From assembly GCF_000026545.1 (NCBI RefSeq), contig NC_011601.1: a stretch of 64,000 bases of DNA; one strand, 5' to 3'. Positions 3,123-44,563 of the stretch are shown here, piece after piece. The translations under genes and the position numbers were made by a program. Within the stretch, counting starts at the first letter, position 1; the number at the start of each line of letters is the position of its first letter. The notes beneath the pieces were generated by a model. That model searched no databases, was not told the origin of the DNA, and saw nothing but the letters and a program-made list of their open reading frames with translations. This stretch comes from Escherichia coli O127:H6 str. E2348/69. Its GTDB lineage: Bacteria > Pseudomonadota > Gammaproteobacteria > Enterobacterales > Enterobacteriaceae.

Positions 3123-4535
3123 ATGAAAAAGACCAAAATTGTTTGCACCATCGGACCGAAAACCGAATCTGAAGAGATGTTAGCTAAAATGCTGGACGCT
3201 GGCATGAACGTTATGCGTCTGAACTTCTCTCATGGTGACTATGCAGAACACGGTCAGCGCATTCAGAATCTGCGCAACGTGATGAGCAAAACTGGTAAAA
3301 CCGCCGCTATCCTGCTTGATACCAAAGGTCCCGAAATCCGCACCATGAAACTGGAAGGCGGTAACGACGTTTCTCTGAAAGCGGGTCAGACCTTTACTTT
3401 CACTACTGATAAATCTGTTATCGGCAACAGCGAAATGGTTGCGGTAACGTATGAAGGTTTCACTACTGACCTGTCTGTTGGCAACACCGTACTGGTTGAC
3501 GACGGTCTGATCGGTATGGAAGTTACCGCCATTGAAGGTAACAAAGTTATCTGTAAAGTGCTGAACAACGGCGACCTGGGCGAAAACAAAGGTGTGAACC
3601 TGCCTGGCGTTTCCATTGCCCTGCCAGCACTGGCTGAAAAAGACAAACAGGACCTGATCTTTGGTTGCGAACAAGGCGTAGACTTTGTTGCTGCTTCCTT
3701 TATTCGTAAGCGTTCTGACGTTATCGAAATCCGTGAGCACCTGAAAGCGCACGGCGGCGAAAACATCCACATCATCTCCAAAATCGAAAACCAGGAAGGC
3801 CTCAACAACTTCGACGAAATCCTCGAAGCCTCTGACGGCATCATGGTTGCGCGTGGCGACCTGGGTGTAGAAATCCCGGTAGAAGAAGTTATCTTCGCCC
3901 AGAAGATGATGATCGAAAAATGTATCCGTGCACGTAAAGTCGTTATCACTGCGACCCAGATGCTGGATTCCATGATCAAAAACCCACGCCCGACTCGCGC
4001 AGAAGCCGGTGACGTTGCAAACGCCATCCTCGACGGTACTGACGCAGTGATGCTGTCTGGTGAATCCGCAAAAGGTAAATACCCGCTGGAAGCGGTTTCT
4101 ATCATGGCGACCATCTGCGAACGTACCGACCGCGTGATGAACAGCCGTCTCGAGTTCAACAATGACAACCGTAAACTGCGTATTACCGAAGCGGTATGCC
4201 GTGGTGCCGTTGAAACTGCTGAAAAACTGGATGCTCCACTGATCGTGGTTGCTACTCAGGGCGGTAAATCTGCTCGCGCAGTACGTAAATACTTCCCGGA
4301 TGCCACCATCCTGGCACTGACCACCAACGAAAAAACGGCTCACCAGTTAGTACTGAGCAAAGGTGTTGTGCCGCAGCTGGTTAAAGAGATCACTTCTACT
4401 GATGACTTCTACCGTCTGGGTAAAGAACTGGCTCTGCAGAGCGGTCTGGCACACAAAGGTGATGTCGTAGTTATGGTTTCTGGTGCACTGGTACCGAGCG
4501 GCACTACTAACACCGCATCTGTTCACGTCCTGTAA
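3123..4535 (+). CDS. pykF: Pyruvate kinase I
   Basis: 470-aa product starting [20 protein letters not shown]; ORF-track ORF begins earlier but the in-frame ATG at 3123 gives canonical length. Confidence 0.95.
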
Positions 4536-4590: not shown

Positions 4591-4833
4591 ATTTAATCGA
4601 TAACCAGAAGCAATAAAAAATCAAATCGGATTTCACTATATAATCTCACTTTATCTAAGATGAATCCGATGGAAGCATCCTGTTTTCTCTCAATTTTTTT
4701 ATCTAAAACCCAGCGTTCGATGCTTCTTTGAGCGAACGATCAAAAATAAGTGCCTTCCCATCAAAAAAATATTCTCAACATAAAAAACTTTGTGTAATAC
4801 TTGTAACGCTACATGGAGATTAACTCAATCTAG

Positions 4834-5082
<249 letters not shown>

Positions 5083-5100
5083 TAGTACCTGTGAAGTGAA

Positions 5101-5129
5101 AAATGGCGCACATTGTGCGCCATTTTTTT
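5101..5129. terminator. Bidirectional terminator between lpp and ldtE
   Basis: Hairpin aaatggcgcac-attg-tgcgccattt flanked by A-run and T-run. Confidence 0.7.
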
Positions 5130-7947: not shown

Positions 7948-9215
7948 CTTGCACCTCCTGGCAGTCGTTGACCGATTCGGGCCAGCACCTGCTGTTTAAG
8001 CCCCTCATCACGCAGTGCTTCCGTCAGTTCGGCAGCAAAGGCGTAAATGATCATCTGCTGGGCATCTTGCTGATTGATCCCGCGCGAGCGCAGATAAAAC
8101 ATCTGTTCGTTATCAATACGCCCCACCGTCGCGCCGTGGCTGCATTTCACATCATCTGCATAGATTTCCAGCTGCGGTTTCGTATCCACTTCCGCCAGTT
8201 TGCCCATCAGCAGATTATTGTTGGTCATCTGACCATCCGTTTTGATGGCGTGCTGCGCGACGTTGATCAAACCGTTAAATACCGCGCGGCCTTTGTCGCT
8301 GACGATAGTTTTGTGCAACTGTCGGCTGTTACAAAAACCTTTATTGTGTTCCAACCAGGTACGAGTATCACACACCTCGTTTTTCACCGGCATCGCCAGG
8401 CTATTGATCCGCACCGTGCTGTTTTCGCCATTGAGTTGCGTACTGGTGTTGTGTCGTAACACTGCGCCACCCAGCAGGAAACTGTGGCTAAATGCGGTGG
8501 CATCGTCAGCCAGCAACAAATCGTTATGAGCAAAGTGGTGACTGAGCGGGTTTTCAAACGCCAGCTTGATATGCTGCAAATGGGCGTTCGCTGCGACGTT
8601 GATAGTGAACCGTGCGCCGGTGAAGTGACGAGCATCATTAAGGCTGACAAAATGTTCGATCACCGTTGCTTCGGCACCTTCCGCCAGATCCAGATGATGC
8701 CGGTAATGGGCAGTATTCACCTCTTCACCTGCCACGCCCTGGGTGATATGCATTAACAGCAATGGCTTTGCCGGCCGTTGACCGCGCTTCACGGCGATAT
8801 GCGTCACGCTTTGTGCCAGGCTTTCCGTCAAATGCAGAAACACTTCCGCCTGAATAGCGTCGGGTAACCCCTGACGGTCGTCGTTAATGCTCACTTCATA
8901 TCCGCTGCCTTCAGTTGCATCGCTCAGTGCGGGCACGTAACGTCCATCGACAAACACCAGCCGCACGGCGTCTAATGTTAACGCTAAGGCATCACGCTGC
9001 TGTGGGGATATCTCCCCCGCAATGCTGACAAACTGGCTATTGGTCAGCCCGTCCAGCGGCGTATATTTCCAGTTTTCATGTTTACGTGTCGGCAGTCCGG
9101 TACGCAGCAATTGTTGTAAATGCTGCTGTGCTTGCGGGGAGCGTTTCGCCCCTTCAGCTTCAAACAAATGATTCCACTGTTGCAGTGCGTTACTGCTGTT
9201 CGGTAAGCCAGCCAT
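7944..9215 (-). CDS. sufD: Fe-S cluster assembly protein SufD
   Basis: 423-aa ORF, 4-nt overlap with sufS. Confidence 0.9.
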
Positions 9216-9936
9216 AACCCTGCTCCTCCAGTTGTTTGACCAACGTGAAATCGCTGGATTTCACAATTCGTCCCTGATACAGCACATGGACGTAATCAGG
9301 CTTGATGTAGTCGAGAATGCGTTGGTAGTGCGTAACAATGATGAATGAACGCTTGCCGTCACGCAGCGAGTTCACGCCATCGGCAACCACTTTTAATGCG
9401 TCAATATCCAGCCCGGAGTCTGACTCATCAAGAATGCATAACTCCGGTTCCAGCACCGCCATTTGCAAAATATCGTTGCGCTTTTTCTCGCCGCCGGAAA
9501 AACCAACGTTTACCGAACGGGTTAATAAATCTTCCGGCATCTTCAGGAGAGCGATTTTCTCTTCCATCAAATCCTGAAAATCAAAGCGGTCGAGCGTTTC
9601 CTGGCCGCGATAGCTGCGCACCGCATTAAGTGCCGTTTGCAGGAAAAACTGGTTACTGACGCCGGGAATTTCCACCGGATACTGGAAGGCCATAAAGATG
9701 CCTTCACCTGCACGATCTTCCGGCGACAGCGCAAGCAAATCTTTGCCTTTAAACTCAACCGTGCCGCTCGTCACTTCATAATCTTCTCGCCCGGCAAGCG
9801 TTGCCGATAAGGTACTTTTGCCCGAACCATTGGGCCCCATAATGGCGTGAACTTCGCCGGGACGAACGTCGAGGCTTAATCCACGCAGGATAGCTTTATC
9901 TTCCACGCTGACGTGTAACTCTTTAATACTTAACAT
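9190..9936 (-). CDS. sufC: Fe-S cluster assembly ATPase SufC
   Basis: 248-aa ABC-type ATPase ORF (GPNGSGKST Walker A). Confidence 0.92.
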   Translation of the reverse strand: MLSIKELHVSVEDKAILRGLSLDVRPGEVHAIMGPNGSGKSTLSATLAGREDYEVTSGTVEFKGKDLLALSPEDRAGEGIFMAFQYPVEIPGVSNQFFLQTALNAVRSYRGQETLDRFDFQDLMEEKIALLKMPEDLLTRSVNVGFSGGEKKRNDILQMAVLEPELCILDESDSGLDIDALKVVADGVNSLRDGKRSFIIVTHYQRILDYIKPDYVHVLYQGRIVKSSDFTLVKQLEEQGYGWLTEQQ

Positions 9937-11441: not shown

Positions 11442-11810
11442 CTATACCCCAAAGCTTTCGCCACAGCCACATTCATTCTGGGCTTTAGGGTTGTGAAATT
11501 TGAATATCTGATTAAGTCCTTCACGAACGAAATCGACTTCCGTGCCATCAATAAAAGGCATCGCTTGCAGCGGGACAAACAGCTTCGCGCCGTCGTGTTC
11601 AAACAGCAGATCGTCTTTGTCCGGCTCGCTAACACTGTCGAGCACATAGCCAAAGCCCGCGCAGCCCGTTTGCTTCACGCCTAAGCGCACGCCGATCATA
11701 CCAGGCTGCTTTGCCACCAGTTCGCGGATGTGTATCGCCGCTGCGGGTGTCAGCGTTAAGCCTTGCCAGGCGAAATCCTGTGGATTAAAGGTTCCTGAAT
11801 GCATGTCCAT
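11442..11810 (-). CDS. sufA: Fe-S cluster A-type carrier SufA
   Basis: 122-aa ORF ending ...CGCGESFGV. Confidence 0.92.
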
Positions 11811-11854
11811 CGATTTACCTCACTTCATCGCTTTCAGCGTATAACAGCATGTTA

Positions 11855-11871
11855 GTGATAATGATTATCAG
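11855..11871. promoter_or_regulatory. Fur-box-like site in suf promoter (gataatgattatc)
   Basis: Close match to the GATAATGATAATCATTATC Fur consensus ~50 bp upstream of sufA start; a second similar AT palindrome (tagataatgattattatcta) at ~11988-12007. Confidence 0.5.
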
Positions 11872-12089
11872 TTCAACCCAGCAAACGCAGGGGCTTTAGC
11901 GTAAAACATGCTTTTTACCTGCTTTTAATAAGCATAGACCCTGATTTGTGGGTTAACAGGCACGCTAAGAATTAGGTATCTCATTGTTAGATAATGATTA
12001 TTATCTAAGGAGCATTAAGGCTGTGATGAAAAAGAAAAAGTTGTATTGAAAATGACTATTTAAGGGATAGGTAAAAAAGTGCAGCGTTC

Positions 12090-12175
12090 AGAAATAAGAA
12101 AACCCTTAAGTCTGTGCGACACAGGCTTAAGGGTTTCTACCCCATCCGGCGCTTATCTCCGGCACTCACAGTGGC
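12090..12175 (-). ncRNA. Candidate small RNA (position expected for rydB): two stem-loops, the second followed by a U-rich tract on the minus strand
   Basis: Long perfect inverted repeat aacccttaag...cttaagggtt plus a second ccgg hairpin in the sufA–ydiH intergenic region; identity to RydB not confirmed. Confidence 0.35.
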
Positions 12176-12358
12176 TTAGCTCTTGAAGGGGCAATAAGGA
12201 TAATCTCATAAAGCTAACCCACTGTTTTAACACAAACTGCGATTTGTATTATTTTTGAACGTTATCAGTCGGGTAGATAGGCAGTATTAAGAAGGCCCTC
12301 GAACCTGGACGAAGATTAATCCAGGCCGATTTGGCGAACTCGCGACATTAAATCAGGA

Positions 12359-12547
12359 TCAATGCACGCCCAGACGCCAGGCGAAGTAGATTTCTTCTTT
12401 TAATTCAGCAGAAGAGAGAGTAAGCAGGTCAGCAAATTCAAGTTCTAATTGTTTCAGACGCTTGAGATATTGGGCAGGTGAAAGATTGCTTTGGTCACGG
12501 CGTAAAAATTCAATGGCCAGTTGGGTGGGATCAAGTTGAGTAGACAT
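12359..12547 (-). CDS. ydiH: Small protein YdiH
   Basis: 62-aa product from internal Met of the 72-aa ORF; synteny. Confidence 0.6.
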   Translation of the reverse strand: MSTQLDPTQLAIEFLRRDQSNLSPAQYLKRLKQLELEFADLLTLSSAELKEEIYFAWRLGVH

Positions 12548-12646
12548 AGCATCCTCGCTTTTAGACAAGACCTGCACAGTATACCACCGTTTACTGTGCA
12601 GATAACAACCAAAAGCAATATGCGTCTCACTTTTCTGGTTACAACG

Positions 12647-13057
12647 TCACAAAATGGCGGTCGTCAATCGTGAAGAACAGCACAAACGCCCTTTCTCATC
12701 GAAGATTTCAATCTGCCAGACCTGGTGACGCGAACCGAGATGCAACGGTTTGCATACGCCGCGCACCCGCCCTTCTCGTGCCGAGCGGACGTGGTTAGCA
12801 TTGATTTCCAGACCAACCACTTTTTGCTCACCTTCGGTACATAAATAACCGGCAACGGAACCGATACTTTCGGCCAGTACCACGGATGCACCTCCATGCA
12901 GCAACCCGAAAGGCTGCTTTGTCCGCGAGTCTACTGGCATTGTCGCTTCAAGGGTGTCATCACCAATATGTTCAAAGCGAATATCCAGCAACCCCACCAT
13001 GTTTCCTTCACCCATGGCATTCAGTGCTTCCAGGGTGATTTTTCGTTTCCATATCAT
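12647..13057 (-). CDS. menI: Hotdog-fold thioesterase (1,4-dihydroxy-2-naphthoyl-CoA hydrolase type)
   Basis: 136-aa ORF with LHGGAS motif; synteny (ydiI). Confidence 0.85.
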   Translation of the reverse strand: MIWKRKITLEALNAMGEGNMVGLLDIRFEHIGDDTLEATMPVDSRTKQPFGLLHGGASVVLAESIGSVAGYLCTEGEQKVVGLEINANHVRSAREGRVRGVCKPLHLGSRHQVWQIEIFDEKGRLCCSSRLTTAIL

Positions 13058-17611: not shown

Positions 17612-17796
17612 TTTCTCATCAGGCGGCTCTGCCGCCTGATTGTTAACCCTGGCTAATTGATATTTGCTTGCTCTTCCCCATATTTTCCTGCTTACCGCTA
17701 TTCAGCTGGTAGTACCTGTCGCAAATTCTTTACAGTTTTTAAACTAATGAGACGAATCTGATCGACGCAAAAAGTCCGTATGCCTACTATTAGCTC

Positions 17797-17901
17797 ACGG
17801 TTATAAATCAACATATTGATTTATAAGCATGGAAATCCCCTGAGTGAAACAACGAATTGCTGTGTGTAGTCTTTGCCCATCTCCCACGATGGGCTTTTTT
17901 T
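17797..17901 (+). ncRNA. rprA: RprA small regulatory RNA
   Basis: Sequence acggttataaatcaacatattgatttataagcatggaaatcccctgagtgaaacaacgaattgctgtgtgtagtctttgcccatctcccacgatgggcttttttt matches remembered RprA, ending in hairpin + T-run. Confidence 0.85.
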
Positions 17902-18039
17902 TAACATTTTTCCGCTTCGCTACCTCGCCCCTCACTCTTTCCAATAATGTTGCACAAGATACTGTGACTCTCTTCAAGCCGTCAGCAGGCTGATAATGTT
18001 ATTTATATTTTATTGTTTATTTCATGCAGCCATTACACG

Positions 18040-39446: not shown

Positions 39447-39692
39447 GGTAACCGTCCCTCTCGAAGGATGTTTTTCAGTATCCGGCTAAAAGGGATGAGG
39501 CCATAAGACATAACAATTACAGAAGGAGTAACTTTCATTTGTTCCATGTTAACCACTTTTTCAGGGGTCCTTTTTTTAGATTATCCTGATTATAAACGAA
39601 GAATCCATTTACGGAATTTTTGTCTGCAAAATACTACTGTATTCAGGAGTAAATGGACGGCGATGTATCATCGCCGTCCATTTTTCGACATA

Positions 39693-44505: not shown

Positions 44506-44515
44506 TGACAGTGTT

Positions 44516-44563
44516 CCTATAAGTACACTAAGCTTGCGCGCAAGGTGTACTTATAAGTACACC
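44516..44563. promoter_or_regulatory. Candidate operator in the C/cox divergent promoter region
   Basis: tataagtacac half-site followed 16 nt later by the 18-bp perfect palindrome gtgtacttataagtacac. Confidence 0.5.

Follow-up and report, generated by a model that had tools for sequence, protein, structure and literature searches.

Genomic Context and Identity of rydB

The window, a 64,000-nucleotide stretch of the genome of Escherichia coli O127:H6 str. E2348/69, carries the genes sufA (11442–11810), ydiH (12359–12547) and menI (12647–13057), all on the minus strand. The sufA–ydiH intergenic region matches strain E2348/69 at 100% identity and, of 5426 complete E. coli genomes, 5421 contain it, each in a single copy. 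A search with Rfam covariance models pointed to the small RNA RydB (RF00118) at 12132–12192 on the minus strand, with a score of 83 bits (E = 3.5e-18) against a curated gathering score of 50 bits. The match is full length (model positions 1–61 of 61), and within 11700–12700 no other Rfam family matched, even at E ≤ 1.

The rydB gene of K-12 MG1655 (b4430, 1764713–1764780) aligns without gaps to 12137–12204, with 65 of 68 nucleotides identical; one of the three substitutions falls in the P2 loop and two are near the 5′ end. Both the gene order sufA–rydB–ydiH and the strand are the same in K-12 and in the window. The window copy is thus essentially the same as the RydB sRNA (RF00118; b4430; synonyms tpe7 and IS082). 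The gene is not annotated in the RefSeq genome of E2348/69.

An earlier note, made from the sequence alone, had flagged 12090–12175 as a strongly structured element, possibly rydB, and had named alignment to the K-12 gene and an Rfam scan as ways of checking it. Both agree with the identification, as does the synteny with K-12; however, the long hairpin that the note took for RydB is its 3′ terminator. The flagged interval does cover the terminator and the 3′ part of rydB, but misses the 5′ third of the gene (12176–12194) and the promoter (12200–12247). We consider it very probable that 12090–12175 comprises the 3′ two-thirds of rydB on the minus strand together with the intrinsic terminator of the primary transcript. 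The feature is a gene already known and ordinary as a scan match: the scan gave a true positive for a catalogued feature, and sRNA genes can be spotted from structure and position.

Terminator Hairpin

The Rho-independent terminator of the rydB primary transcript was assigned to 12087–12136 (minus strand) by folding, the U tract and the conserved position of the hairpin. The underlying inverted repeat (12100–12116 and 12120–12136) has 17-nt arms that are 94% complementary and a 3-nt loop, and forms the longest tight near-perfect hairpin of the 64-kb window. Read on the minus strand, the stem arms are 12136–12120 and 12116–12100 and the loop is 12119–12117. At the one odd position of the stem, the plus strand has a T.G wobble and the minus strand a C.A mismatch. 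The hairpin RNA of the minus strand has a folding energy of −22 kcal/mol and runs into the U-rich tail UUUUCUUAUUUCU (12102–12090; U-rich over 12099–12087), which is found on the minus strand only, the plus-strand tail being UUUCUACCCC. The inverted repeat described in the earlier note is therefore real but, with one mismatch, not perfect; its U-rich tract on the minus strand is confirmed, and its second hairpin exists, though it is small (CCGG-AGAUAAGCG-CCGG at 12146–12162). Of these two hairpins, only the small one is part of RydB.

The 105-nt transcript 12194–12090 folds with −38.4 kcal/mol (z = −3.0; 1 of 200 shuffles was as good), while the RydB core without the terminator is thermodynamically ordinary (z = −0.52). 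Hence, the structural signal noticed at first reading comes from the terminator. The consensus terminator scan did not call the hairpin, since that scan disallows an internal mismatch; RepRanger lists rydB with a Rho-independent terminator. Similar to a canonical intrinsic terminator, such as that of lpp (window 5099–5127), the element is a stem-loop followed immediately by a U-rich tract; it ends a short unit, and its structure is conserved while its sequence is not. It differs in the unusually long stem (17 bp, A-U pairs included), which is moderately G+C-rich and has the internal C.A mismatch, and in the position of the dominant K-12 3′ end, which lies inside the 5′ arm and outside the U tract.

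A hairpin of 14–20 bp with a folding energy of −17 to −36 kcal/mol directly follows the core in all 14 of the orthologues compared, and a terminator-like hairpin also follows it in plasmid and phage copies. In Citrobacter (NCU1 and Awk4), Pseudenterobacter, Klebsiella, Pantoea and phage copies, the terminator sequence is unrelated. Judged from these sequences, the hairpin is apparently a generic module, freely replaced by unrelated hairpins. Among the nine hairpins that are homologous, 93% of the alignment cells pair on the rydB strand versus 87% on the opposite strand, and double changes occur at three pairs.

These data also bear on the idea that the palindrome acts as DNA, being a binding site for a suf regulator or a REP-like repeat instead of an RNA hairpin. 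It is a near-perfect DNA palindrome containing CTTAAG and is situated approximately 280–330 bp upstream of sufA, as such a site might be. However, copies of the hairpin occur at a median of one place per genome in 5420 genomes, and this single-copy state led us to reject the reading as a REP or dispersed repeat. Moreover, the sequences that replace it elsewhere are unrelated and keep only a hairpin with a one-sided T tract, one-sided changes yield G.U pairs on the rydB strand, and in Salmonella the palindrome stays with rydB and not with sufA. A role as DNA is accordingly considered very unlikely.

Transcript Ends and Proposed Processing

The transcript ends are K-12 data carried to the window by alignment, the window coordinate being the U00096.3 position minus 1752576; U00096.2 positions were converted by adding 1976, calibrated on RprA. 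In the supplement of Romero et al. 2014 (PMC4681348), rydB is represented by two species that share their 5′ end (1762794, U00096.2), one of 104 nt (1762690–1762794), corresponding to 12090–12194 of the window, and one of 64 nt (1762730–1762794), corresponding to 12130–12194. The Term-seq data of Adams et al. 2021 (PMC7815308, supplement) place a minus-strand 3′ end at 1764708, i.e., 12132 of the window (...GGGGUAGAAACC-3′). It is the single 3′ end called within 1764500–1764999, is reported for the listed conditions and has scores of 2.2 and 4.1 million. These values are comparable to those of ssrA, csrB and glmY and exceed that of the lpp terminator more than 10-fold.

Two forms of the RNA can be delineated on the minus strand from these data. 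The primary full-length transcript of about 104–105 nt (12090–12194) is taken from the Romero 2014 supplement, mapped from K-12, and mature RydB of about 61–63 nt (12132–12194), which begins 5′-UUGCCCC and ends in GGGGUAGAAACC-3′, is defined by RF00118 and the K-12 ends. The 104-nt species ends about 13 nt past the GGG of the stem, while the Term-seq end is at 12132 only, and no 3′ end was called at the U tract in the K-12 Term-seq tables (PMC7815308). As Term-seq calls only 12132, termination at the U tract is indicated by one RNA-seq study and by the annotation of Salmonella rydB as 105 nt (Sittka 2008). The Cappable-seq supplement has no entry at the rydB coordinates, and PMC5371410 does not mention rydB.

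The dominant K-12 3′ end (12132) is located 7 nt past helix P1 and 5 nt into the 5′ arm of the hairpin. Mature K-12 RydB ends in ...GUAGAAACC and has neither the terminator nor a U tail. Since the abundant RNA ends inside the 5′ arm, the terminator appears to be removed after transcription and to be lost in this way from the 61–63-nt RNA. A dominant 3′ end inside a terminator arm is typical of terminator-trimmed RNAs (cf. GlmY, M1 RNA and 6S RNA). A new finding for RydB is therefore that its prominent hairpin is a disposable terminator and is missing from the mature RNA. As the K-12 annotation and the Rfam model both stop at the foot of the long hairpin, and the dominant RNA just inside it, structure-based detection finds the disposable terminator and not the functional RNA.

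The following course of events is proposed. Transcription would most likely start at about 12194–12192 from an extended −10 promoter, and the first ~55 nt would fold into the P1 closing helix around the small hairpins P2 and P3. RNA polymerase would then meet the 17-bp hairpin and the U tract (12136–12087) and terminate near 12090, the hairpin presumably being the cause of the ~104-nt end. The terminator would be removed, probably in two steps, an endonucleolytic cut in or beside the stem and then 3′ trimming as far as P1. In addition to rydB transcription, the hairpin may stop any read-through from ydiH before the suf promoter region. The latter region is co-directional with rydB and is situated just downstream of the hairpin.

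Putative Promoter

The putative rydB promoter was assigned to 12200–12247 (minus strand) on the basis of conservation and spacing. It contains an extended −10 of the TRTG type, with TATG at 12210–12207 and the hexamer GATTAT at 12205–12200. All chromosomal and plasmid copies, as well as the phage copies of classes A and B, have the motif T[AC]TGAGAnnAT 6–7 nt ahead of GCCCC. The K-12 5′ end (12194) maps 6 nt downstream of GATTAT; taken as a −10, this hexamer predicts a start at 12193 ± 1, in agreement with both the mapped end (12194) and the start of the Rfam match (12192). Two other −10 candidates were rejected: TATGAG, at a distance of 11 nt from the 5′ end as mapped, and TATTCT, which shows no conservation in Rahnella. 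Judged from sequence and spacing, GATTAT with the upstream TRTG is probably the best-fitting −10 among the candidates.

No −35 hexamer was found at the canonical spacing, and a simple sigma-70 scan did not call this promoter. About 5 bp upstream of where the −35 would sit there is a conserved A/T-rich block (...GCAAAWATTGTTAAA...; ACAAATCGCAGTTTGTGTTAAAAC in the window, 12247–12224), which might be an UP-like element or a regulator site. On the opposite strand, TAAGAATAATCTCA overlies the −10 region and presumably represents an RcsB-box-like match.

The 68-nt K-12 annotation begins inside the putative −10 hexamer (window 12204), so that it differs from the ~104-nt primary transcript and does not coincide exactly with the 61–63-nt mature RNA. 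Its 5′ end has probably been placed about 10 nt too far upstream.

Structure and Conservation of the RNA Core

The core comprises three helices on the minus strand. In the closing stem P1, which spans 12139–12193, (U)GCCCC (12193–12188) pairs with GGGGU(A) (12143–12138), as derived from covariation. P2, in which GCU (12180–12178) pairs with AGU (12166–12164), follows the Rfam consensus structure, and the Rfam structure also gives P3, CCGG-A-G-AUAAG-C-G-CCGG, at 12146–12162.

Covariation was analysed in an alignment of 24 distinct variants of chromosomal, plasmid and viral origin, including five divergent ones. Changes on both sides were found at 6/6 tested pairs of P1, examples of the closing stem being GCCCC/GGGGC, AUCCC/GGGAU, GCUCC/GGAGC and GUUCAA/UUGAAC. 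The covariation score of P1 (0.140) exceeded those of all 500 shuffles and of every slid register. In the divergent copy L093, CCUUU/AAAGG occupies the place of P1, one column out of register. The P1 helix is thus demonstrated by covariation. The base of P2 and the whole of P3 are invariant in 24/24 variants, and covariation neither supports nor contradicts these helices because they never vary. The sole variant found in P3 is a change of the loop from AUAAG to ACAAG. Between genera, free variation within the core is confined to 3–5 nt of the P2 loop; divergent phage copies have an apical P2 extension of 3–4 bp with one compensatory change.

About 50 of the 55 nt of the core are invariant across three Enterobacterales families, in stems and loops alike. 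The core is 87–94% identical where the third codon positions of ydiH are 42–55% identical and the terminator segment 43–81%. The extreme constraint on the sequence of this 55-nt core, whose closing helix covaries, is a new finding for RydB. The three-helix core of the RNA family as a whole is near-invariant across Enterobacteriaceae, Erwiniaceae and Yersiniaceae.

A small protein was considered as an alternative product of the region, as the window contains a 35-aa ORF on the plus strand (12079–12186) and an 18-aa ORF on the minus strand. Among orthologues, however, the sense-strand products would have 4, 10, 18 or 23 aa, single-base indels shift the frame, and on the antisense strand three different frames are open; in addition, the sense ATG lies upstream of the mapped rydB 5′ end. 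Because frames shift between orthologues, the small ORFs of both strands were rejected, and a coding role of the region is regarded as extremely improbable.

Distribution beside ydiH

The chromosomal distribution was studied at 78 loci encoding YdiH relatives, taken from species-representative genomes. rydB adjoins ydiH in 12 of them and is absent at the remaining 66. The 12 loci belong to Escherichia species, two Salmonella subspecies, three Citrobacter, Pseudenterobacter and a Leclercia MAG, and each of them passes the RF00118 threshold; eight sampled ydiH loci without rydB gave no RF00118 match.

The neighbourhood of ydiH suggests another role for the hairpin: it might mainly be the terminator of ydiH, with RydB cut from the ydiH 3′ UTR and having no promoter of its own. 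ydiH is co-directional and ends 167 nt upstream of rydB, and the interval between them contains no other strong terminator, only one weak site at 12315–12296. No separate ydiH 3′ end was called in K-12 Term-seq, and rydB stays beside ydiH in 12/12 loci having both, even where sufA has moved away. On the other hand, the spacing between a conserved extended −10 and the mapped 5′ end is that expected of a promoter, and this motif accompanies the core at loci lacking ydiH, namely in Klebsiella, Pantoea, Rahnella and phages. The abundance of RydB is far above what poorly expressed ydiH could supply, and 66 of the 78 ydiH loci lack rydB. We therefore consider it improbable that RydB is a product of the ydiH 3′ UTR, and regard it as transcribed from its own putative promoter. 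The two roles of the hairpin are compatible, as it can terminate both the rydB and the ydiH transcripts.

Plasmid and Phage-Borne Copies

A blastn search of plasmid records located the promoter together with the core at unrelated loci of Klebsiella, Pantoea and Rahnella. The copy on the Klebsiella pneumoniae chromosome lies downstream of patD, and those of Pantoea and Rahnella are on megaplasmids, one Rahnella copy being located between a DNA methyltransferase gene and a holin–lysozyme–lysis cassette. All of these copies score 73–81.5 bits on RF00118, and their terminators differ in sequence and in distance from the core.

Exact-match scans with two core motifs found RydB units in 53 IMG/VR viral contigs, and 12 of 14 sampled contigs pass the RF00118 threshold; among the divergent copies, L103 and L124 are above it, and L093 and L107 are below. 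In 42 of the first 49 contigs, genes for a P21-type holin (PF04971) and/or lysozyme (PF00959) follow on the same strand, 120–1200 nt downstream, and the other seven contigs are mostly truncated or divergent. Where the sequence is available, genes for Q antiterminators (PF03589, PF06530 and DUF1133) are found upstream, with a recognisable Q within 1.5 kb in 19 phage loci. The RydB unit is thus widespread in prophage late regions, which is a further new finding. Lambdoid prophages carry RydB, together with a terminator and a putative promoter of its own, immediately before the lysis genes. No RydB match was found in the 50,697 sequenced phage genomes of INPHARED. A literature search, weak in that its ranking favoured papers without rydB, returned no paper linking RydB to phage late regions.

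Such RF00118-positive units, lying between Q genes of three families and same-strand lysis genes, raise the question of whether RydB is a relic or domesticated form of a lambdoid late leader, with a promoter equivalent to pR′, a core equivalent to the leader RNA and a hairpin equivalent to tR′. RydB would then correspond to lambda 6S RNA or, in Stx phages, to StxS. StxS and lambda 6S are short RNAs transcribed from the constitutive pR′ and ended at tR′ (PMC7547250; Sy, Lan and Tree 2020). In the viral contigs, a promoter and a short RNA are followed by a strong terminator and the lysis genes, an arrangement that matches the pR′–tR′ scheme of StxS, and the phage copies of RydB share with StxS both this layout and the position in the Q-to-lysis interval. 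RydB is also very abundant, as a constitutive promoter would make it. Like StxS, it appears to be processed from a primary transcript to a shorter stable form, and both RNAs are linked to rpoS expression in the literature. There is, however, no sequence similarity between them. StxS is a 3′ fragment that keeps the terminator and binds Hfq, whereas RydB is a 5′ fragment that loses the terminator and is reported to be Hfq-independent; the effect on rpoS is activation in the case of StxS and a reported decrease in that of RydB; and in contrast to StxS, a start of RydB at pR′ is only a candidate. The class D phage copies have TAAATT as the −10, which we take to be the −10 of lambda pR′ and which also favours a late leader.

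The organisation of individual loci argues against a strict equation of RydB with the pR′ leader. In L090, L095 and L119, other promoter-like or terminator-like sites, STnc100 (RF02076) and tRNA genes separate Q from the RydB unit; in L090 and L095, the stretch from the Q-like gene to the unit holds both promoter-like sites and intrinsic terminators. In L110, no other such sites were seen between Q and the core. Given the additional sites and the STnc100 and tRNA genes sharing the interval, RydB does not in every case come first among the transcription units behind Q, and it resembles one among several RNA genes carried as cargo between Q and the lysis genes. Furthermore, Q genes of three unrelated families precede one and the same core, although a Q-specific loading site would not be expected to behave in this way; the sequenced phage genomes of INPHARED lack a match; and in the window no phage genes flank rydB, its neighbours being ydiH and sufA. 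The strict form of the late-leader hypothesis was downgraded because of the extra terminators, STnc100 and tRNA genes, and we rate descent from a late leader as rather unlikely.

Phage morons are self-contained promoter–gene–terminator units inserted between phage genes. The RydB unit resembles them in that promoter, core and terminator move together among unrelated chromosomal, megaplasmid and prophage sites, and in its position in the Q–S hot spot beside tRNA and STnc100 genes; it differs in being an RNA, while morons are usually protein-coding. In view of the extra sites and the unrelated Q families, a moron-like RNA cargo is rated above the late leader itself. Taken together, the viral units preceding lysis genes and the unrelated loci of Klebsiella, Pantoea and Rahnella make RydB look like a phage-borne, moron-like RNA family.

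Functional Implications

In literature citing Wassarman 2001, overproduction of RydB is stated to lower rpoS expression. RydB is further described in the literature as having no known direct targets and as Hfq-independent; in a Salmonella Hfq co-immunoprecipitation, its enrichment was 2.5-fold, with 4 vs 10 reads (Sittka 2008). Deletion of rydB is reported to cause modest persister and oxidative-stress phenotypes, and the literature on rydB and CsrA contains no evidence of binding. RydB is among the strongest small-RNA 3′ ends in K-12 Term-seq, yet has no known target.

Duplex folding of mature K-12 RydB with the 567-nt rpoS leader and 60 nt of coding sequence gave a pairing that 3% of dinucleotide shuffles equalled. 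The predicted duplex needs the whole RNA to be unfolded, and this pairing was set aside as uninformative.

RydB would act in trans. An Hfq-dependent base-pairing sRNA keeps its terminator hairpin and 3′ U tail, whereas mature RydB has neither. The invariance of about 50 of 55 core nucleotides in stems and loops, the weak or absent association with Hfq and the loss of the terminator and U tail point to recognition by a conserved partner, and a protein or RNA partner of this kind seems likelier than Hfq-dependent pairing through a short seed.

It can be tentatively suggested that RydB, far from being an orphan sRNA restricted to Escherichia and Salmonella, is in the window a chromosomal copy of a mobile, phage-borne family of structured RNAs bound to a conserved host factor, a possibility that we hold to be less likely than not. 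If so, the extreme constraint and the very high abundance might both reflect binding of the host factor, and, speculatively, the RNA could serve the stress and RpoS physiology of lysogens or the control of late and lysis genes. The family found in prophage late regions gives an angle on the function of RydB, namely through a conserved partner, lysogen physiology or late-gene control.

RydB Units in Viral Contigs

RydB units positive for the Rfam family RF00118 were found in 53 viral contigs from IMG/VR (L088–L140), among them L090 (4894–4954), L110 (7482–7542), L095 (4290–4350, minus strand) and L126 (7430–7490, minus strand). In these contigs, the units nearly always lie directly upstream of the holin–lysozyme–Rz lysis genes and are co-directional with them, while genes for Q antiterminators belonging to three Pfam families are located upstream of the units. 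The viral units can be divided into four promoter classes (A–D), to which one core is common.

The interval between Q and the lysis genes of several phage contigs contains a cluster of small RNA genes, where STnc100 (RF02076) and tRNA genes adjoin the RydB unit. STnc100 is located at 4591–4770 in L090, 441–641 in L119 and 8937–9117 in L107. The neighbouring tRNA genes (Asn-GTT, Gly-TCC and Phe-GAA) occupy positions 4412–4567 in L095, 2399–2474 in L135 and 1249–1404 in L119. In class C contigs, RydB comes directly after tRNA genes, and the unit itself lacks a recognisable promoter.

Divergent RydB-like variants were revealed in four viral contigs. They keep AGAGCUAA and the P3 hairpin, and feature a different P1 helix and a longer P2 helix. 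Contig L124 carries two such copies in tandem, 180 nt apart (9520–9587 and 9699–9766); the others are located in L093 (oriented core 3202–3255), L103 (888–950, minus strand) and L107 (about 8772–8830). No recognisable lysis genes adjoin the variants in L093, L103 and L124. The variants in L093 and L107 do not reach the Rfam threshold for RF00118; hence, the RydB family is wider than RF00118 captures.

RydB Copies at Other Loci and the ydiH Neighbourhood

In three Enterobacterales families, RydB copies are also present at loci that have no relation to ydiH or suf. They were found after patD in Klebsiella (L083, 2518–2578), on megaplasmids of Pantoea (L082, 2520–2580; L087, 1520–1580) and Rahnella (L084, 1516–1576; L085, 1501–1561) and on a plasmid of P. 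stewartii (L086, 1502–1562). Each of the copies in L082–L087 has a different terminator. In the P. stewartii copy, which contains two core substitutions, the conserved promoter is missing and no clear terminator is present; hence, this copy may be decaying. Several rydB-carrying records labelled as plasmids are 4.8–5.4 Mb long (e.g., NZ_OL790696.1 and CP125156.1); evidently, these are chromosomes to which the source collection gives the wrong label.

Of the 78 ydiH loci, 66 (in the range L007–L079) lack rydB. They include most representatives of Citrobacter, Enterobacter, Lelliottia, Kluyvera, Kosakonia and Trabulsiella, where the genes after ydiH are unrelated and often convergent, with neither rydB nor sufA within 1.5 kb. 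The Salmonella locus has a transporter-like gene between rydB and the suf operon.

Annotation Limits and Self-Complementarity of rydB

RefSeq (PGAP) leaves the sufA–ydiH intergenic region without annotation, both in E2348/69 and in the other top hits. The 68 nt K-12 annotation of rydB corresponds to window positions 12137–12204, whereas the RNA-seq and Term-seq ends delimit 12132–12194. The annotated 5′ end precedes the RNA-seq end by about 10 nt and is located within the putative −10 hexamer, and the annotated 3′ end falls 5 nt short of the Term-seq end. The 14 nt RydB segment AGCUAAGCCACUGU (12168–12181) shows 93% complementarity to the spacer in the rydB promoter region (12212–12225). Since K-12 has a weaker match and other species have none, this complementarity is probably due to chance or strain-specific.

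Other Features in the Window

A perfect 9 nt palindrome, TTAGATAAT-gatt-ATTATCTAA (11987–12008), overlaps a promoter-like site, ATCACA-16-GATAAT, on the minus strand (12027–12000). Both are located within the regulatory region upstream of suf, a short distance downstream of the terminator of rydB. This hexamer pair is listed among constitutive RpoD promoters, with a position between sufA and rydB (Shimada 2014). The RprA sRNA gene was identified at full length on the plus strand (17797–17904; RF00034, 118.5 bits), and the inverted repeat at 17796–17831 represents its 5′ hairpin. The perfect hairpin with 14 nt arms, AAAAATGGCGCACA/TGTGCGCCATTTTT (5099–5127), has exactly the sequence given for the lpp terminator in the Term-seq table of Adams 2021 (PMC7815308). 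The whole-window scan also showed an inverted repeat with 28 nt arms of 71% complementarity just upstream of ydiH (12557–12616), the inverted repeat GTGTTCCTATAAGTACAC/GTGTACTTATAAGTACAC with a 16 nt gap (44511–44562) and a perfect hairpin with 15 nt arms, AAATGGACGGCGATG/CATCGCCGTCCATTT (39651–39683).
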